A DNA stretch of 7,900 nt, taken from the NCBI RefSeq assembly GCF_003334255.1, contig NZ_QOWU01000093.1; one strand, 5' to 3'. Source of the DNA: Escherichia coli. Its GTDB lineage: Bacteria > Pseudomonadota > Gammaproteobacteria > Enterobacterales > Enterobacteriaceae. The notes under the pieces are model-generated. The model made no database searches, had not been told where the DNA came from, and saw nothing but the letters and a program-made list of their open reading frames with translations. Shown piece by piece: positions 1 through 7,900 of this stretch (position 1 is its first letter; the number at the start of each line of letters is the position of its first letter). The translations under genes and the position numbers were made by a program.

Positions 1-484
1 CAGGAGGTGCCGTCGGAAGATGCCAGGGCTGATAATCCGTTACAGAGGCTGTAATGGTTGCCTCCGGAGCAGTTTGCGGTAATGCCGTTCCCGGGAATGG
101 ATTGCCAGTGCGGGGACTGTGGAGCTTAATTCCGGTGTTGGTGGCCTTTCCGTTGATTTTGAGCCAACAGCCCTCCTGTGACTGACAGGCTGCCTCGTCA
201 TTCCATTCGTATCTCCAGTAACAGGGGGTTGTATTGTATTTTAATGTGCCGGTTCAGGCGTGCGTTTCCCGGCGCGTCTGCACCGGCTTAACCAAATTCA
301 ACAGGGATAAAATAGTGTAAATAACCGAAGTATTACTTGCAGAATCGGGGGAAGCATCCGGGGTTTTATTCAACAGGCATGGGAGGCTCCGGCTCTGACA
401 GACATTGTACTGTGGAATGTTGTTACAGGTTGGGGCGGCAACCGTGCCAGGAGACCATGAGCCGTTCACGGCATTAAAGGCCAC
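1..484 (-). pseudogene. Possible gene remnant of unknown product: one minus-strand frame is open from the window edge to 484 except for a single in-frame TGA at 254-256
   Basis: The listed ORF 254..484 (-) and the stretch 1..253 are in the same frame (triplets 224, 227 ... 254). I translated 1..253 by hand and found no stop and no ATG/GTG/TTG, so it cannot start independently. About 160 codons with one stop is unlikely by chance, but I recognise no family. Confidence 0.2.
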
Positions 485-1056
485 ACTTCAGTCGCTTACA
501 TTCCCTGTGGTGGCAGGCATCTTCCGTTAAGGCGTCAGAGCGTTACCAACGTTATGTTGTCATGGCTCACCTTTCATAGTCGATGCTTATCTGGTGACTG
601 AAACTAGCCGCAGATAAAGAGTGTGAAGTTGATACCATGGAGTGGAGTGACGTGCAGGCAGGAGATTCGCTCTATGCAGGGTTGTGAGATGAATTCAAAC
701 CGGCTGTCAGCGCCAGTAATATTTGAAGATTCGTCCGGTTGTTATCCAGTGTGCATTAAAAACCCAGACATTATGGACAATACAACGGCTTCCATAACAG
801 GGAGGAGCCTGTTTATTATCCGGGCGTAATGACTCACCTTTGTGGGCTTTTTCCCGTCGTGCTTTTAACGTTGAAGGCATTTTCTGCCTGCCGATTCAGG
901 ACAGCGACAAAAGCCATATCAGACTATTGGTCAATGATGACCAGCGTCTGGAGTAGATGATAAGCCAAATTGATAAACTGGAATATGTGATGAAAGTGCA
1001 ACGTAATCAGTCCAATCCGACGATGTTTAACAAGAGTACGGTGTTTTTTCAGTAAG

Positions 1057-1839
1057 TCATTCGTCTTCTGAATCAGGTGTAATGATCTTTACAGAAGCAT
1101 TCCGGCAGTGCGTAACATAATCTGCCGGTAACGGACGCTCGCTAATCAGAACATCAAATGCAGAGAGCGGTGCGAGGCTGGCAGAGGCTACTTCATCGAA
1201 CAAGGCGTGGCGGGCGAGCAAAATTTTCCTTAGTCCACGGGCCATCGCTTTACGCTTAGTGGCAAGATCTTCGGGATTAAACCAGCTGACGCCAAAGTGA
1301 TCATGTACACCGCTGGCGGAAATAAATATTTTTCGCGGATTGAGAGAGTCTAATGGCGAAGAGTTACTGGCATCGTAAAAAGCATCACTTCTGGCACGAT
1401 ACGTACCACCACAAAGTATTGCTGTCACATTAGGTTTTTCATTCAACGCAACAAAGACACGATGTGAGTAACAGATGCCAGTGAAGGTGATTGCATCCGG
1501 GATCATGCTTATAACGAGCGGTATCTCCTGGCCATTATCAAAGAAGATCAGATCATTTTCATTAACCATTCCGGCGGCCAGAATTGCAATAGGTAAGTCA
1601 TCACGATGATTTCTCGGAACGTCCTGGATTACTGGCATGGATGGTGCGGGTTTATGCACCATTACAATATAGCCACCCAGTAGGGTCAGTGGCAGAGGTT
1701 CATCTTCCTGATGGAGATCGCGACGAATAGTCATTACAGAAACTTCCAGCATTCGTGCCGCGTCTTTCAAATGGATTCTGTCGGTTTTCTTAAGTATTTC
1801 AATCAAACGTCGGATACGCTCTTTTTGCTTCGTTTCCAT
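1057..1839 (-). CDS. deoQ: DeoR-family transcriptional repressor (N-terminal HTH, C-terminal sugar-phosphate-binding domain); likely deoxyribose operon regulator DeoQ
   Basis: N-terminus METKQKERIRRLIEILKKTDRIHLKDAARMLEVSVMTIRRDL closely matches my recollection of E. coli DeoR (METRREERIGQLLQELKRSDKLHLKDAAALLGVSEMTIRRDL). ATG is the complement of 1837-1839, with GGAGAG upstream on the minus strand; the ORF track starts one codon earlier at TTG (1840-1842). Divergent from a kinase-permease operon, as in deoQ/deoKPX. Confidence 0.85.
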   Translation of the reverse strand: METKQKERIRRLIEILKKTDRIHLKDAARMLEVSVMTIRRDLHQEDEPLPLTLLGGYIVMVHKPAPSMPVIQDVPRNHRDDLPIAILAAGMVNENDLIFFDNGQEIPLVISMIPDAITFTGICYSHRVFVALNEKPNVTAILCGGTYRARSDAFYDASNSSPLDSLNPRKIFISASGVHDHFGVSWFNPEDLATKRKAMARGLRKILLARHALFDEVASASLAPLSAFDVLISERPLPADYVTHCRNASVKIITPDSEDE

Positions 1840-1856
1840 CAACTCTCTCCGTAAAA

Positions 1857-1872
1857 TGTTATAAAAATAACA
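1857..1872. promoter_or_regulatory. DeoR-type operator-like palindrome TGTTA-N6-TAACA (TGTTATAAAAATAACA) next to the deoQ start
   Basis: A perfect 8-bp inverted repeat AATGTTAT/ATAACATT lies at 1855-1874. The core has the same half-sites and spacing as the E. coli DeoR operator consensus as I recall it (TGTTAGAATTCTAACA). It sits in the deoQ-deoK divergent intergenic region. Confidence 0.45.
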
Positions 1873-2082
1873 TTATGGCATTAGTAAACATTGTTTTAGT
1901 TACCATACTATACGACCGACCCTTTGAAATGAAAAGGGTATAGCCTGCTGAATTTTCGGTATTAATCCTGTTAGGTTGCTTATGATTAGATAGTGTTGGC
2001 CTGAGTGATAAGACTGGAAGTCTATTAAATAAACATCGGGTTGATGTGCTAATCGCGATCTCAGTCACAAATGATGCAAAAG

Positions 2083-2098
2083 TAACATACCAATGTTA
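2083..2098. promoter_or_regulatory. Second palindrome with the same half-sites in everted order (TAACATACCAATGTTA), about 45 bp upstream of the deoK ATG
   Basis: The inverted repeat TAACAT/ATGTTA is read directly from the sequence. A further TTGTTAT half-site lies at 2110-2116 and an AACATTGTT element at 1887-1895. Candidate DeoQ operator cluster. Confidence 0.35.
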
Positions 2099-2141
2099 TT
2101 TAAATACCATTGTTATGCGAAAGTTTATAAGAGGTAGTGAA

Positions 2142-3077
2142 ATGGACATTGCAGTTATTGGTTCCAATATGGTGGATCTCATTACTTACACTAATCAGAT
2201 GCCTAAAGAAGGAGAAACTCTGGAAGCACCTGCCTTCAAAATCGGATGTGGTGGGAAAGGTGCTAATCAAGCGGTGGCGGCGGCTAAATTGAATTCAAAA
2301 GTCCTGATGCTGACTAAAGTAGGTGATGATATTTTTGCGGATAATACTATTCGTAATCTTGAATCTTGGGGAATTAATACCACTTATGTTGAGAAAGTCC
2401 CCTGTACCAGCAGTGGTGTTGCGCCGATCTTTGTTAATGCTAACTCGAGCAATAGTATTTTAATAATTAAGGGGGCGAATAAATTTCTTTCCCCGGAAGA
2501 TATCGATCGAGCTGCAGAAGATCTGAAAAAATGCAAATTGATCGTTTTACAACTGGAAGTTCAACTGGAAACAGTTTACCACGCGATTGAGTTTGGTAAG
2601 AAAAATGGTATTGAAGTGTTATTAAATCCGGCTCCGGCATTGCGTGAGTTAGATATGTCTTATGCCTGCAAATATGATTTCTTTATCCCGAATGAAACAG
2701 AACTGGAAATATTAACCGGTATGTCGGTTGATACTTATGATCATATTCGTTTGGCCGCACGTTCGTTAGTTGATAAAGGGCTGAACAATATTATTGTTAC
2801 CATGAGCGAAAAAGGCGCATTATGGATGACCCGTGATCAGGAAGTCCATGTTCCTGCATTCAAAGTAAATGCTGTTGATACTAGTGGCGCTGGTGACGCA
2901 TTTATTGGTTGCTTTTCCCATTATTATGTTCAAAGCGGTGATGTTGAAGCCGCTTTGAAAAAAGCCGCTTTGAAAAAAGCCGCTCTCTTTGCCGCTTTCA
3001 GCGTCACAGGGAAAGGTACGCAATCATCTTATCCGAGTATTGAACAATTTAATGAATTTTTAACCTTAAACGAATAA
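2142..3077 (+). CDS. deoK: Ribokinase/PfkB-family sugar kinase, likely deoxyribokinase DeoK (311 aa from this start)
   Basis: Start MDIAVIGSNMVDL with SD AAGAGG at 2129-2134, 7 nt upstream of the ATG at 2142. Ribokinase motifs GCGGKGANQAVAAA and DTSGAGDAFIG are present. The ORF-track start at 2046 has no SD and adds a non-conserved leader, so I prefer 2142. Context: divergent DeoR-like regulator and a downstream FucP-like permease. Confidence 0.85.
   Translation: MDIAVIGSNMVDLITYTNQMPKEGETLEAPAFKIGCGGKGANQAVAAAKLNSKVLMLTKVGDDIFADNTIRNLESWGINTTYVEKVPCTSSGVAPIFVNANSSNSILIIKGANKFLSPEDIDRAAEDLKKCKLIVLQLEVQLETVYHAIEFGKKNGIEVLLNPAPALRELDMSYACKYDFFIPNETELEILTGMSVDTYDHIRLAARSLVDKGLNNIIVTMSEKGALWMTRDQEVHVPAFKVNAVDTSGAGDAFIGCFSHYYVQSGDVEAALKKAALKKAALFAAFSVTGKGTQSSYPSIEQFNEFLTLNE
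2949..2985 (+). repeat. Perfect 15-bp direct tandem duplication (GCCGCTTTGAAAAAA x2, plus a partial third copy GCCGCTC) inside deoK, in frame
   Basis: Read directly: unit 1 is 2949-2963 and unit 2 is 2964-2978, giving AALKK-AALKK-AAL in the protein, C-terminal to the GAGD motif. Confidence 0.95.
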
Positions 3078-3104
3078 TCATCCTGCACAGTTAAAGGTAG
3101 CACT

Positions 3105-4421
3105 ATGAACGATAAAAACATCATTCAGATGCCTGATGGGTATCTGAATAAGACCCCCTTGTTCCAGTTTATTTTGTTATCGTGTTTATTCCCGCTATGG
3201 GGATGCGCAGCTGCATTAAATGACATATTAATCACTCAATTCAAAAGTGTATTTTCGCTAAGTAAATTTGCTTCAGCATTGGTGCAGAGCGCATTTTATG
3301 GAGGTTATTTTTTAATTGCAATACCAGCATCCCTTGTGATTAAAAAGACCAGTTATAAGGTGGCAATTTTAATTGGCCTGACGCTGTATATTGGTGGTTG
3401 TACACTTTTTTTCCCTGCCTCGCATATGGCAACCTACACTATGTTCCTTGCGGCTATTTTTGCGATTGCGATTGGCCTGAGCTTCCTTGAAACTGCAGCG
3501 AACACATACAGTTCGATGATTGGTCCAAAAGCCTACGCTACATTGCGGCTCAATATCAGCCAGACCTTTTATCCGATTGGTGCTGCGTCTGGTATTTTAT
3601 TGGGCAAATATCTGGTTTTCTCCGAGGGGGAAAGCCTTGAGAAGCAGATGTCCGGAATGAACGCCGGGCAAATTCACAACTTTAAGGTGCTGATGTTAGA
3701 GAACACCCTTGAACCGTATAAGTATATGATTATGATTCTGGTTGTGGTCATGGTGTTGTTCCTTTTAACCCGCTTCCCAACCTGTAAAGTGGCACAGACA
3801 AGTCACCATAAACGCCCGTCAGCAATGGATACGCTGCGCTATCTGGCTAGAAATCCGCGCTTTCGTCGTGGTATTGTGGCTCAATTCCTTTATGTGGGTA
3901 TGCAGGTCGCAGTATGGTCATTTACCATCCGTCTGGCGCTGGAGTTGGGCGATATCAACGAACGTGATGCTTCAAACTTCATGGTCTACAGCTTTGCCTG
4001 CTTCTTTATTGGCAAGTTTATAGCCAACATCCTTATGACACGTTTTAATCCGGAAAAAGTCCTGATTCTCTATTCCGTTATAGGGGCGCTGTTTCTGGCA
4101 TATGTTGCACTGGCTCCAAGTTTCAGTGCGGTCTATGTCGCCGTCCTGGTAAGTGTTTTGTTTGGCCCTTGCTGGGCGACGATCTATGCAGGAACACTGG
4201 ATACAGTTGATAACCAACATACAGAAATGGCAGGAGCAGTCATTGTTATGGCTATTGTTGGCGCAGCGGTGGTTCCGGCAATTCAGGGATATATTGCAGA
4301 TATGTTCCACTCACTACAGCTTTCATTCCTGGTTTCTATGCTCTGTTTTGTCTATGTCGGTGTCTACTTCTGGCGTGAAAGCAAAGTACGTAATGCACTG
4401 GCTGAAGTCACAGAGTCCTGA
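3105..4421 (+). CDS. deoP: MFS transporter of the L-fucose:H+ symporter (FucP) family; likely deoxyribose permease DeoP (438 aa)
   Basis: Strong resemblance to FucP as I recall it (ALNDILITQF versus NNLNDILLPQF; SAFYGGYFLIAIPASLVIKK versus SAFYFGYFIIPIPAGILMKK), and hydrophobic throughout. SD AAAGG is upstream; the gene starts 27 bp after the deoK stop. Confidence 0.9.
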   Translation: MNDKNIIQMPDGYLNKTPLFQFILLSCLFPLWGCAAALNDILITQFKSVFSLSKFASALVQSAFYGGYFLIAIPASLVIKKTSYKVAILIGLTLYIGGCTLFFPASHMATYTMFLAAIFAIAIGLSFLETAANTYSSMIGPKAYATLRLNISQTFYPIGAASGILLGKYLVFSEGESLEKQMSGMNAGQIHNFKVLMLENTLEPYKYMIMILVVVMVLFLLTRFPTCKVAQTSHHKRPSAMDTLRYLARNPRFRRGIVAQFLYVGMQVAVWSFTIRLALELGDINERDASNFMVYSFACFFIGKFIANILMTRFNPEKVLILYSVIGALFLAYVALAPSFSAVYVAVLVSVLFGPCWATIYAGTLDTVDNQHTEMAGAVIVMAIVGAAVVPAIQGYIADMFHSLQLSFLVSMLCFVYVGVYFWRESKVRNALAEVTES

Positions 4422-4432
4422 GGAGAATCGTT

Positions 4433-4969
4433 ATGAGTACGCGTATTTATTTGTGGCGGGCGCTTTTTGGCGAAAAACCTCGTATCTTGCTGGAAAATAG
4501 TGATTTTACTGTCACGTCTTTTCGCTATGACAGTGGTGTCGAGGGGCTTAAAATTGCAAACAGTCGTGGACATTTAATTATTCTTCCCTGGATGGGGCAG
4601 ATGATTTGGGATGCGCAATTTGATGGACACAGTCTCACCATGTGCAATATGTTTCGCCAGCCTAAACCGGCGACAGAGGTGATAGAAACCTATGGCTGTT
4701 TTGCCTTTCATTCAGGTTTGCTGGCTAATGGCTGCCCATCTGCGGAAGATACTCATCTGCTACACGGTGAAATGGCCTGTGCCGCGATGGATGAAGCATG
4801 GATGGAATTAGAGGGAGATATGTGACGCCTTACCGGGCGTTACGAGTATGTAAAGGGATTCGGGCATCATTATCTGGCTCAGCCAGCAGTGGTCCTTCAC
4901 AAATCCTCTACACTGTTCGATATTAAGATGGCCGTAACCAATCTGGCTTCTGTAGATATGCCACTACAA
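4433..4969 (+). pseudogene. deoX: deoX-like gene (putative aldose-1-epimerase/mutarotase-like), disrupted by an in-frame TGA at 4823-4825 and 3'-truncated by the IS66-family terminus
   Basis: ATG 4433 with SD AGGAG overlaps the deoP stop (translational coupling). The 130-aa ORF ends at TGA, but the same frame stays open for 48 more codons (RLTGRYEYVKGFGHHYLAQPAVVLHKSSTLFDIKMAVTNLASVDMPLQ) up to stops that overlap GTAAGCG at 4970-4975. HLLHGE and VTN...P segments loosely resemble aldose-epimerase-family proteins such as YphB; that family assignment is tentative. Confidence 0.55.
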
Positions 4970-5001
4970 TAGTAAGCGGCTCGCCAGAACCGTCTTAATA
5001 T

Positions 5002-5183
5002 TTACTGAGAGCTCAGATCAACTTTCCAGGGCAACAGATCGCGTACCCGATTTGCCGGCCAGTCCTGGATATGTTCAATGACGTAACGCAGCCATTTTTC
5101 TGGCTCTACATTGTTCAGACGGCATGTGCCGATCAGCGAGTACAACACCGCCGCATGTTCGCCACCGCTGTCGGAACCCGCGA
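5002..5183 (-). CDS. tnpC: IS66-family transposase TnpC, 3' exon (C-terminal 60 aa: (F)AGSDSGGEHAAVLYSLIGTCRLNNVEPEKWLRYVIEHIQDWPANRVRDLLPWKVDLSSQ)
   Basis: Hand translation of the minus strand. It joins in frame to the upstream exon across the proposed intron, using T at 7008 plus TC at 5183-5182 to form the Phe codon. It is not in the ORF track because it has no start codon of its own. Confidence 0.75.
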
Positions 5184-5186
5184 GTC

Positions 5187-5222
5187 GAGTCAGCCGGAGA
5201 GAATTTCACTCCCCGGCTGCTC
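5187..5222 (-). ncRNA. Group II intron domain VI with bulged branch-point adenosine (plus 5190, 7 nt from the 3' splice site)
   Basis: Minus strand GAGCAGCCGGGGAG / loop UGAAAUU / CUCUCCGGCUG-A-CUC forms a 14-bp helix with one bulged A, followed by GAC and then the exon. Confidence 0.6.
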
Positions 5223-5225
5223 ACG

Positions 5226-5259
5226 GAACCGTACGTGACACTCTCGCGTCATACGGCTC
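5226..5259 (-). ncRNA. Group II intron domain V (catalytic hairpin)
   Basis: Minus strand GAGCCGUAUGACGCGAGAGUGUCACGUACGGUUC: 34 nt with the AGC triad at positions 2-4, a 2-nt bulge on the 3' strand, a GAGA (GNRA) tetraloop and G-U wobbles at the canonical places. It starts 4 nt after the IEP stop. Confidence 0.88.
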
Positions 5260-5263
5260 TTGA

Positions 5264-6496
5264 TCACTCATTCGATGCACGTAGTAAATACCAGTGGACA
5301 AATAGCTTCGGATACTCCTTCCTTACCAGCGTCAGCTTTCGCTGAGCCCTCCGGTTCGAAAGTCTGTATTTAGACTGCATCCACTTGAGCAGACGTGACT
5401 GCATTGCACTCCACAGTCGATAGTTGAAATTTCTGGACCAGAACTTTCCGTAGTACTCGATCCAGCCTCTCACTATCGCATTGTAGCGCCTCGCAAAATC
5501 CAGCAAACTCTCAGCTGTTGAGCGATGTATACGCCACTTCTTGATTGTTTCTGTTATTTTGCGCATTGCTGCATTTGACGCACCCGGCATGCATTTTCGG
5601 TACAGTTCGCCTTTGAAATTCTTCAGCGTACGCACTTTGAAGTCATATCCGAGAAAGGTGAAACTCGTTGCGACGTTTCTCCTTTTAAACGTGTCAATGT
5701 AGGCGATATTCGTTTTCCCTGCATTCAGGACCAGCCCGACTTCCGAGAAGCGCTCCGATAACCTGTTCTTCAGCCTTGTTGCATCACTCATTCGTGAACA
5801 ATGTACTACAATATCATCAGCGTACCTCTCAAACGGTACCCCCCGATATTCTCTTTCCATCCACAAATCAAATGCATAGTGAAGGAACAAGTTAGCAAGT
5901 AGCGGACTAATGACCCCGCCCTGCGGAGTGCCTCGTGTTCGGGTTATTAATTCTCCATTTTCACAACTCTGCATTGGTGCTTCCATCCAGCGTCGACAGT
6001 ACAGGATGACCCATTTAGGCATCCCGTGGTGTTCCAGTGCTTTGAGCACCAGATCATGTCTCACATGGTCGAAAAACGCACTGATGTCCACTTCCAGTAT
6101 CCAGCTATAACGCCAGCACCGGATGGCACATTGTTTCAGAGCGTCATGAGCTGATTTGCCTGGTCGGTAACCATAAGAATCAGCATGGAAAATCGGGTCA
6201 AGCTTTTCTTCCATAAAAAGTTTTATCGCTCCCTGAGCAATTCGATCGGATACTGTTGGGATCCCCAGAATGCGCTCCTTGCCATTCGGCTTCGGGATCC
6301 GTTTTTCCAGCACAGGTGGCGGAAACCATGTTCCCGAACATAGCCGGTTCCAGATCTTGTATAGATTGCCATCACGTTGCTGGTCGAACATTTTCAAAGT
6401 CTGTCCGTCGCATCCGGGGGCTCCCTTGTTGCGACGCACATCCAGATATGATGCCCAGACCAGTGCTTTTGGTATTTCGAATGATTTTCGTTGCAT
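5264..6496 (-). CDS. Group II intron-encoded reverse transcriptase/maturase (410 aa; RT domains 0-7 plus X/maturase domain, no recognisable C-terminal DNA-binding/endonuclease extension)
   Basis: RT motifs are present: NKGAPGCDG (RT0), GIPTVSDRIAQ, YGYRPGKSAHDAL, TPQGGVISPLLANL and YADD (plus 5813-5824). The maturase motif RGWIEYYG follows. ATG start at 6494-6496; the reading frame is intact. Confidence 0.92.
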   Translation of the reverse strand: MQRKSFEIPKALVWASYLDVRRNKGAPGCDGQTLKMFDQQRDGNLYKIWNRLCSGTWFPPPVLEKRIPKPNGKERILGIPTVSDRIAQGAIKLFMEEKLDPIFHADSYGYRPGKSAHDALKQCAIRCWRYSWILEVDISAFFDHVRHDLVLKALEHHGMPKWVILYCRRWMEAPMQSCENGELITRTRGTPQGGVISPLLANLFLHYAFDLWMEREYRGVPFERYADDIVVHCSRMSDATRLKNRLSERFSEVGLVLNAGKTNIAYIDTFKRRNVATSFTFLGYDFKVRTLKNFKGELYRKCMPGASNAAMRKITETIKKWRIHRSTAESLLDFARRYNAIVRGWIEYYGKFWSRNFNYRLWSAMQSRLLKWMQSKYRLSNRRAQRKLTLVRKEYPKLFVHWYLLRASNE

Positions 6497-7007
6497 CAGT
6501 TACATCATCCCCTTATGGGTTGTGTCTTTTGCAATGAATGTGATCCCCATCCCTTCGCTCCAGACCCATTACAGATCTTTCATCACTACTACGAATGGGT
6601 CCGCCCCTGTTTCCCGATACGTGCCGGAAACAGGTTCTCACGTTCCCTGAGATGGTCTGGCCCGGGATCCTGCTGCCTTAACACCGGATGCCGCGCAGTC
6701 AGTAAGCAGGTGTCTTCTGCGCTTATCAGAGGACGGCTGTACGGCCCCATTTTGACATCATCTAAGATTTCGATGCTTCATCGGACAGTTTACTTTCGTT
6801 CAGCTTCCCGAACCCCACGTGACAGTAGATCTCTGCCTTTTCCCGAGTCGCTCACCACTACATTCCTTAGAATGAAGCAGCACCGGGTCGTTTGGTCAGT
6901 GTTCCTGCAAACCCTGACCGGAGGGCCCACCTCCACCCACCTCAGAGCATGGATAACTTATGCTGCAATTTTCATATTGCCGCTATCAGTTCTCCTTCGT
7001 GACACAC
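6497..7007 (-). ncRNA. Group II intron domains I-III (and the start of IV), 5' ribozyme portion
   Basis: Position and length fit, being about 0.5 kb between the 5' GUGUG and the IEP start. The internal secondary structure was not resolved by eye. Confidence 0.55.
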
Positions 7008-7823
7008 ACAACCAGTTCTTCCGGCCCACGGCCACACCCCGTAAGGCGTTCTCTGCGATGTTGTTGTCGATTTCCACCCAGCCATTGCTGCAGTACACGT
7101 TCAGGGCCTCCCACTGTTTCAGCAGGTATGCGAACGCTTTCGCCGTATCCGAGTGACGCGACAGGGTTTTCATCTTTTCACGCAGCCAGCTTTCCAGGGA
7201 TTTCAGCAGCGGTTTCGTTTTCAACTGACGTTCGGCAAGGCGCTGCTCCGCCGTCATTCCCCTTATCTCTGCCTCGATGGCGTACAGTTCGCCGATCCGT
7301 TTCAGCGCTTCCTCCGTCAGGGCTGACGGGGTGCGAACGTGCACATCGTGGATTTTACGGCGGGCGTGAGCCCAGCAGGCGGCTTCCGTTATCCGGCCAT
7401 CCCGGTACAGCTCGTTGAACCCGGCGTATGCATCCGCCTGCAGTACACCACTGAACCCCGCAAGATGGGTCTGCGGATGGATGCCTTTTCTGTCCGGGCT
7501 GTAAGCGAACCACACCGCCGGCGCCAGCGTTGACCCGGCGTTACGGTCGTCACGAACGTAGGTCCATAACCGCCCGGTCTTCGTTTTCTTATTGCCTGGC
7601 AACAGCACCGGGACAGGCGTGTCATCAGCATGGAGCTTACCGTCAGTCAGCACATAGTCCTGAAGCGCTTCTTCCAGCGGTGACAGTAGCCGGCAGCATG
7701 CATCCACCCAGCCCGACAGCAGTGAACGACTCAGCTCCACACCTTGCCGGCCGTATATTTCTGACTGGCGATACAGCGGGGTGTGCTCTGCATACTTCGA
7801 GGTCAACACGCGGGCCAGCAGCC
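7008..7823 (-). CDS. tnpC: IS66-family transposase TnpC, 5' exon (central region, N-terminally truncated)
   Basis: Translation ...[34 protein letters not shown]...[20 protein letters not shown] matches the IS66 TnpC pattern. ORF-track entry 6958..7809 is this frame reading 16 codons into the intron before a stop. No IS66-like coding continues beyond 7823. Confidence 0.75.
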
Positions 7824-7900
7824 CATAAGCGCTAACTTAAGGGTTGTGGTATTACGCCTGATATGATTTAACGTGCCGATGAATTACTCTCACGATAACT
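7824..7900. mobile_element. Probable IS186-like (IS4-family) terminal region abutting and truncating the IS66-family tnpC
   Basis: CATAAGCGCTAACTTAAGGGTTG at 7824-7846 matches my recollection of the IS186 terminal inverted repeat. It is preceded by a GC-rich stretch (GCGGGCCAGCAGCC), in keeping with the GC-rich targets I recall for IS186. The tnpC frame hits a stop at 7837-7839. This rests on memory only. Confidence 0.45.

Follow-up and report, generated by a model that had tools for sequence, protein, structure and literature searches.

Contig NZ_QOWU01000093.1 of Escherichia coli includes a 7,900-bp stretch (hereafter, the window) in which a regulator gene diverges from three closely packed plus-strand genes resembling deoK, deoP, and deoX, the genes of deoxyribose catabolism. 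Is this locus the intact sugar operon that its layout suggests, and does its AT-rich composition mark a recent arrival in E. coli? The first-pass annotation had described positions 1057–4969 as a tightly organized, accessory deoQ-deoKPX module whose composition fit horizontal acquisition. We find that the identity and accessory nature of the locus stand, and that its intactness and its recent import do not. Our reading, to which we give a probability of about 85%, is that positions 818–4971 comprise a partly decayed copy of a known deoxyribose-utilization module, of Escherichia-side origin. Coordinates, based on the open reading frame (ORF) listing and on direct reading of the sequence, are as follows, with the evidence in parentheses.

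818–1055, plus strand: ilvN 3' remnant, a pseudogene of 239 bp corresponding to nt 53–291 (alignment to K-12 ilvN)
1057–1839, minus strand: deoQ, DeoR-family repressor of the deoxyribose operon, 260 aa, intact (ORF, NCBIfam, UniRef)
1840–2141, no strand assigned: divergent control region, 302 bp, 34.1% GC (alignment of eight regions, repeats)
2142–3077, plus strand: deoK, deoxyribokinase of the PfkB/ribokinase family, 311 aa, frame open, with a 5-residue insertion (NCBIfam, UniRef)
2947–2961, plus strand: 15-bp in-frame tandem duplication in deoK, unit AAGCCGCTTTGAAAA, adding AALKK (alignment, TRF)
3105–4421, plus strand: deoP, deoxyribose permease, a FucP-type major facilitator superfamily (MFS) transporter, 438 aa, intact (TIGR00885, homologue identity)
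4433–4971, plus strand: deoX remnant, a pseudogene holding nt 1–539 of 1014, mutarotase-like (alignment to strain 1105)
4972–5183, minus strand: IS66-family terminal inverted repeat (GTAAGCGGCTCG...) and tnpC 3' end (junction sequence, match to strain 1105)

Identity and organization of the deo locus

The deo module occupies 1057–4971, with deoQ on the minus strand and deoK, deoP, and deoX on the plus strand, where three ORFs (2142–3077, 3105–4421, and 4433–4825) follow the 302-bp AT-rich spacer. The gap between deoK and deoP (3078–3104) is 27 bp, as in Citrobacter loci, and the deoP stop codon TGA (4419–4421) opens the sequence TGAGGAG, overlapping the GAGGAG that precedes the deoX ATG at 4433 (11-bp gap, identical in Citrobacter); both details of spacing had been read exactly at first pass. 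The regulator, a 260-aa minus-strand ORF, is DeoR-like as had been proposed, and its best NCBIfam match is the DeoR repressor model. Because its score (230 bits) lies under the cutoff of 244, DeoQ is taken as a paralogue and not as DeoR itself. Exact-sequence look-up in UniRef returned Q67FX4_ECOLX, named 'DeoQ', for the regulator and the name 'Deoxyribokinase' for the kinase, in agreement with the gene names given at first pass.

Full genes from Salmonella diarizonae and Citrobacter encode proteins that are 95–97% (DeoK), 95% (DeoP), and 81–82% (DeoQ; 82% to S. diarizonae) identical to those of the window, Salmonella DeoK fragments are 97% identical to the window DeoK, and the full-length E. 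coli DeoX (the allele of strain 1105, locus L001) shares 82–84% of its residues with Salmonella and Citrobacter homologues, the Salmonella value being 83%. Ratios of nonsynonymous to synonymous substitution rates (dN/dS) of the deo genes against these genera are 0.01–0.06 (about 0.02 for deoP). Salmonella enterica has the same four genes in the same order and orientation, with the same 27-bp and 11-bp gaps, a conserved deoK-proximal control block, and an ilvN gene that likewise ends 1 bp from the deoQ stop. The same module is found in the E. coli island deoK operons, including that of PAI II AL862 and those of AL862, 55989, CFT073, EC185, and NCTC 86 (ROD 40), and the statement that this architecture is known from Salmonella and from pathogenic E. 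coli islands is thus borne out. Judged by its sequence, the locus is the known deoQ-deoKPX deoxyribose-utilization cluster of Enterobacteriaceae, a system already described. In a full-text literature search for deoX, every match was a use of the term in an unrelated sense.

Decay of deoX and an insertion in deoK

The tight operon organization noted at first pass holds for the spacing of the genes and fails for their integrity. The third ORF had been taken for a deoX-like gene, and its noted end at 4969 is in fact the truncation point of a 539-bp remnant: deoX is cut after 539 of its 1014 nt, at 4971/4972, by the end of an IS66-family element. The window is colinear with strain 1105 over 705–4971 (98.1% identity) and then jumps to the IS66/intron region of that strain, 3.4 kb further on. 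At the junction, deoX sequence ...CCACTACAATA runs up to 4971 and is followed from 4972 by GTAAGCGGCTCG, which in strain 1105 directly adjoins the tnpC 3' end of an IS66-family element and which matches the GTAAGCG start of IS66-family terminal inverted repeats. In addition, deoX codon 131 is TGA (4823–4825) in the window and TTA (Leu) in strain 1105 and eight close relatives. No missing 3' part of deoX was found within 10 kb in relatives. The related loci L004–L018 share the deoX-IS66 junction itself, and a search of 5426 complete E. coli genomes found it in none of them. At 4964–4971, BLAST matches overlap by 8 bp; an IS66 target duplication was considered here and rejected, as the overlap reflects alignment extension only.

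The 70 DeoX homologues found beside deoK-deoP, in taxa ranging from Enterobacteriaceae to Pasteurellaceae and Bacillus, all have a length of 337–339 aa. The full-length protein matches Pfam DUF4432, and searches of NCBIfam and of PDB sequences gave no match. Its AF2 model (E. coli allele; pLDDT 82.5, pTM 0.85) has 3ty1, a putative aldose 1-epimerase, as its top Foldseek match (TM 0.77, E 1.8e-13), followed by GalM structures; full-length DeoX is therefore predicted to have a galactose-mutarotase-like beta-sandwich fold of the aldose 1-epimerase superfamily, with putative catalytic activity. The remnant lacks the conserved C-terminal half, including the invariant R306-P307-E308-G309. As read from these lesions, deoX in the window is a pseudogene and a member of the locus by descent. 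Three of the four substitutions that distinguish the window from L004 and L005 over 7.2 kb (4525, 4534, and 4824) fall inside the deoX remnant, a cluster expected of a pseudogene under relaxed constraint or of a small recombination patch.

The deoK frame is open, and the gene carries a 15-bp duplication that is found neither in strain 1105 nor in the usual allele of 306 aa. Over 2947–2984, TRF reports a period of 15 with 2.5 copies and 100% matches, compared to 1.5 copies in the common allele, and the inserted AALKK yields ...VEAALKKAALKKAALFAAFSV... in the helix that follows the GAGD motif. The wild-type gene already contains the 8-mer AAGCCGCT twice, 15 bp apart, making slipped-strand mispairing the obvious mechanism of duplication. 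Segment length at this position is fixed, and none of the 42 diverse homologues aligned has an insertion there. In the AF2 model of the 311-aa protein the fold is kept, with a short extra helix and a pLDDT of about 77 over residues 261–280. The duplication was absent from all ten top-ranked records among complete E. coli genomes (span of 116 bp, not 131), ten out of some 1600 module-bearing genomes in a ranking that is no proof of absence from the rest. Other E. coli island copies encode a full-length 337-aa DeoX and a 306-aa DeoK, and the window copy has neither.

Predicted pathway and state of the window copy

In a complete system, the FucP-type symporter DeoP would import 2-deoxy-D-ribose, the mutarotase-fold protein DeoX would probably interconvert its anomeric or ring forms, DeoK would phosphorylate the sugar to deoxyribose-5-phosphate, and the core enzyme DeoC, encoded elsewhere, would cleave this product into acetaldehyde and glyceraldehyde-3-phosphate. 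As long as deoxyribose is lacking, the divergently encoded DeoQ would keep the operon repressed by way of palindromic operators in the 302-bp region. In Salmonella, deoP and deoX are reportedly needed for optimal deoxyribose use (Christensen et al. 2003). Salmonella strains without deoK do not grow on deoxyribose (PMC13432705), deoK with deoC is the only kinase route for this sugar (PMC6365646), and carriage of the deoK operon on PAI II AL862 enables E. coli to use deoxyribose (PMC7545054, PMC5382810), as published for intact alleles.

Set against this scheme, the window copy keeps an intact deoQ, control region, and deoP. Its deoK frame is open, with a duplication of probable slipped-strand origin in the helix that lines the nucleotide pocket. 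Its deoX is dead: an IS66-family element took the distal 47% of the gene, and a TTA-to-TGA change at codon 131 followed later. As far as sequence can indicate, this allele most likely leads to reduced or lost growth on deoxyribose.

Several points weigh against this reading. Since the DeoK fold is retained in the model despite the insertion, the kinase may be fully active, and public assemblies contain the identical 311-aa protein in 338 index blocks, a frequency at which the allele is not obviously deleterious. Some E. coli genomes hold two or three deo copies, and a second, intact copy may exist elsewhere in the source genome. On the question of origin, the Escherichia-side assignment relies on one 239-bp pseudogene, from which an unsampled close relative as donor would be indistinguishable from an ancestral E. 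coli. In a weaker variant of the relic scenario set out below, the widespread +AALKK allele may have altered kinetics or specificity and not be neutral.

Control region between deoQ and deoK

The intergenic region contains a perfect 20-bp palindrome, AATGTTATAAAAATAACATT, at 1855–1874 beside deoQ and, beside deoK, a block at about 2049–2141 that is conserved across genera (eight intergenic regions from E. coli, Salmonella, Citrobacter, and Cedecea). Within this block, which is invariant among the four genera, lie GTAACAT/ATGTTAT half-site repeats (2082–2117) and a CRP-like CGCGA-N6-TCACA motif (2054–2069). Palindromes made of ATGTTAT/ATAACAT half-sites thus flank the region on both the deoQ and the deoK side. 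The palindrome and half-sites are plausible candidate operators of DeoQ, and the CGCGA-N6-TCACA motif is a tentative CRP site; such an arrangement would fit work reported for Salmonella. An alternative CRP site, TGTGC...TCACA (2045–2069), was rejected for its spacing of 15 rather than 6. A simple sigma-70 promoter scan gave one site, not above chance. Compared to strain 1105, the window lacks a CT dinucleotide and one A at 1842–1852, in short (CT)n and A runs located between the deoQ start codon and the palindrome, i.e., in the ribosome-binding region of deoQ.

Distribution, base composition, and origin of the module

Among 5426 complete E. coli genomes, 1626 carry the deo module at 97–99% nucleotide identity, and its contexts were always island-like in the loci inspected. 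K-12, from which the module had been said to be absent, has an empty slot at the corresponding position (ilvN-75 bp-uhpA), and the three K-12 regions compared match the resident ilvN only. MG1655 does not natively grow on deoxyribose and requires mutations in rbsK and rbsR to do so (PMC6452873). The description of the locus as an accessory module is thus well founded.

Base composition gave a more divided answer. The module is more AT-rich than its neighbors, as had been stated (43.3% GC, compared to 58.5% for the IS66 tnpC fragment and 49.9% for the group II intron), with deoK at 40.1% and the intergenic spacer at 34.1%. The comparison of GC content and codon use with the host, proposed at first pass, separates two signals: GC at third codon positions (GC3) of deoK (33.7%) is under that of all 47 K-12 chromosomal genes sampled, and the codon adaptation index (CAI) of the deo genes is ordinary (0.34–0.42; K-12 mean 0.39), using as reference 28 K-12 ribosomal-protein, elongation-factor, and rpoA genes. 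In eleven Enterobacteriaceae and Edwardsiella species, deoK has a GC content of 43–53%, somewhat under that of its flanks except in Leclercia, and in low-GC Providencia and Proteus it has 40–41%, not under the flanks.

To the left of deoQ, the window retains a remnant of ilvN, the gene for the small subunit of acetolactate synthase I. Disrupted by a single-base deletion and by a TAG in frame, it ends 1 bp from the deoQ stop. This remnant is 90% identical (215/239) to K-12 ilvN, 75% to the Salmonella ilvN region, and 73–84% to those of other genera, and its differences from the K-12 gene include 16 GC>AT and 3 AT>GC changes. Three other E. coli strains have the same ilvN pseudogene annotated next to their deoQ, and an intact ilvN lies 1 bp from deoQ in a Salmonella locus (L019). 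In a scan of species-representative genomes, the order ilvB-ilvN-deoQ/deoKPX-uhpA-uhpB was found in Salmonella diarizonae, Citrobacter, Raoultella, Klebsiella indica, and Enterobacter, and nucleotide identity between the deo genes of the window and these representative genomes never rose above 84%. Synonymous divergence (dS) of the deo genes from Salmonella and Citrobacter is at least 1.3 or saturated, and that of ilvB/ilvN is 0.9–1.8. The Salmonella locus is complete and chromosomal, between ilvBN and uhpAB, whereas the window copy is island cargo with a 239-bp ilvN stub, a truncated deoX with a nonsense codon, five additional DeoK residues, and a GC content about 8 points lower.

The ilvN stub, in the position expected from the ilvBN-deoQKPX-uhpAB order, together with saturated dS indicates an old Escherichia-side copy rather than a recent import from Salmonella. 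The resemblance of the remnant to the E. coli gene points to an origin on the Escherichia side, with AT-biased drift thereafter, and the AT-richness of the module is weak evidence of recent acquisition, given its normal CAI, saturated dS, and E. coli-like ilvN stub. Of the first-pass suggestion that composition fits horizontal acquisition, the accessory, island-borne character of the module survives and recent import does not. Under this scenario, a chromosomal ilvN-uhpA segment of an Escherichia-side genome would have been captured onto genomic islands with its ilvN stub and would then have drifted toward AT. In its most complete version, to which we give even odds, the E. coli module would be a relic of an ancestral Enterobacteriaceae slot that was lost from the chromosome, rescued on islands as ilvN'-deoQKPX, shifted to low GC, and is now being dismantled in this lineage.

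Alternative explanations

A transfer of the module from Salmonella enterica into E. coli, with AT-richness as its mark, is stated in a passage of PMC5382810 that cites Bernier-Febreau 2004, and our Escherichia-side reading conflicts with it. The very high protein identity of DeoK (95–97%), the location of the module on pathogenicity-island-type DNA in E. coli, and its atypical composition speak for a recent transfer. At the nucleotide level, however, identity to Salmonella is just 76–83%, and dS is saturated and no smaller than that of the flanking core genes ilvB/ilvN. Moreover, Salmonella deoK has 48% GC, not 40%, the ilvN remnant resembles the gene of E. coli (90%) and not that of Salmonella (75%), and the CAI is normal for E. 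coli. We thus regard a recent transfer as improbable. Still less credible is the proposal of an intact, fully functional deoQ-deoKPX operon in which the short third ORF is a genuine small deoX-like gene, even though the plus strand has three tightly spaced ORFs in succession, with Shine-Dalgarno sequences, and gene callers list 130-aa and 179-aa products as proteins. The ORF is colinear with codons 1–179 of the gene for a 337-aa protein and then meets an IS66 inverted repeat, all 70 homologues are 337–339 aa long, the invariant C-terminal residues are gone, and the codon-131 stop replaces a Leu codon of all close relatives; at the sequence level, the proposal is refuted.

The slightest chance of all falls to a cluster for another sugar, ribose or L-fucose, as the RefSeq names would have it (rbsK, 'ribokinase'; fucP, 'L-fucose:H+ symporter permease'). 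These names arise because the kinase and permease pass the broad equivalog models (DeoK: TIGR02152 ribokinase, 359.7 bits; DeoP: TIGR00885 fucP, 319.9 bits; both over cutoffs) and fail the E. coli-specific ones (RbsK, PRK11142: 245 vs. a cutoff of 341; FucP, PRK10133: 280.8 vs. 427). K-12 RbsK belongs to the same PfkB/ribokinase family and shares the GAGD anion-hole motif. Salmonella DeoK also phosphorylates ribose and can support growth on it (PMC13432705), and RbsK, when mutated or over-expressed, can stand in for the kinase during growth on deoxyribose (PMC6452873, PMC13432705). Nevertheless, DeoK is a distant paralogue of RbsK, with 164 bits to E. coli RbsK structures compared to 623 bits for the nearest DeoK cluster, and no rbsDACB or fucAIKU genes are adjacent. 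The K-12 ribose system (rbsDACBK-R) also differs in its remaining parts, with an ABC transporter in place of an MFS permease, the pyranase RbsD in place of a mutarotase-fold partner, and a LacI-type in place of a DeoR-type regulator. Orthology and synteny with the experimentally characterized Salmonella deo locus are strong, and homology and the exact UniRef names place the genes in a deoxyribose cluster and not in the different sugar pathway that the first-pass annotation had named as its refutation.

Implications

For pathogenic and some commensal E. coli, the ability to use deoxyribose has been documented as a fitness trait in the gut and the urinary tract (PMC3147056, PMC7545054). With a deoX pseudogene and an atypical kinase allele, the window copy should not count as a working pathway when presence or absence is tabulated or metabolic models are built. 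A concrete, testable history for the module comes from its ilvN stub and the empty slot of K-12, which weaken the common statement of a Salmonella enterica origin. The understood role of the system is unchanged by these findings, and this copy is an ordinary, partly decayed accessory locus of a known kind.

Flanking elements and order of events

Downstream of the deoX remnant and the tnpC 3' end, the window contains the following features.

5184–7007, minus strand: group II intron, 1824 nt, GTGTG...AC, inserted in the IS66 tnpC (Rfam; uninterrupted IS66 copy in L001)
5264–6496, minus strand: reverse transcriptase/maturase ORF of the intron, 410 aa, intact (TIGR04416, 394.7 bits)
7008–7824, minus strand: upstream part of the IS66-family tnpC (NF033517 transpos_IS66, 316.8 bits)
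7825–7900, no strand assigned: end of IS421 (IS4-like), cutting tnpC at 7824/7825 (tnpC uninterrupted past 7824 in L013 and L004)

The intron looks complete, and its Rfam domains are Intron_gpII (5184–5261) and group-II-D1D4-2 (6818–6934). Strain 1105 also has a 5'-part remnant of the same group II intron attached to tnpC (L001, about 17851–18320). The source contig ends at the IS421 end.

A 7985-bp contig of E. coli assembly GCA_965136505.1 (L017) matches the window at 100% identity, and the nonsense allele of the window is common to L013–L018. In L004–L011, the duplication and the IS66 truncation are present and the codon-131 stop is absent, and the module lies directly beside ykgR/ykgP, at a point corresponding to about 313,807 in K-12. 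L013 and L004 run on uninterrupted beyond 7824 (i.e., without IS421), marking the IS421 insertion as the most recent event in the window. We infer that the duplication and the IS66 truncation came first, in either order, followed by the nonsense mutation and then by IS421 at 7825.

Where the sequence extends far enough to the left (L013–L016), the loci share an island-type flank with YfjI, AlpA, YagK/YfjJ, and zinc-ribbon genes; the left flank of the window (zinc-ribbon, YagK/YfjJ, AlpA, and YfjI) is the island type of strain BH100N, in which an operon for a phosphotransferase system (PTS) ascorbate-type transporter lies about 1 kb downstream of deoX. This flank is a mosaic: window positions 1–1060 match the island DNA of BH100N at 99.9%, and the match to strain 1105 starts at 705. 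L004 and L005 diverge to the left of 585–587, where about 100 bp of other sequence joins the module to ykgP/ykgR chromosomal DNA. On ROD 40 of NCTC 86, the deoK operon is accompanied by the vpe locus for sugar uptake (PMC5382810). Past the IS66 element, relatives carry genes for an MFS transporter, a GFO/IDH/MocA oxidoreductase, and a thiamine pyrophosphate (TPP) enzyme (L013, 14997–20393; L004/L005, 17288–20936), with an additional PfkB/DUF2090 kinase in L013. These genes look like an inositol-type catabolic cluster, and the island appears to gather sugar-use modules.

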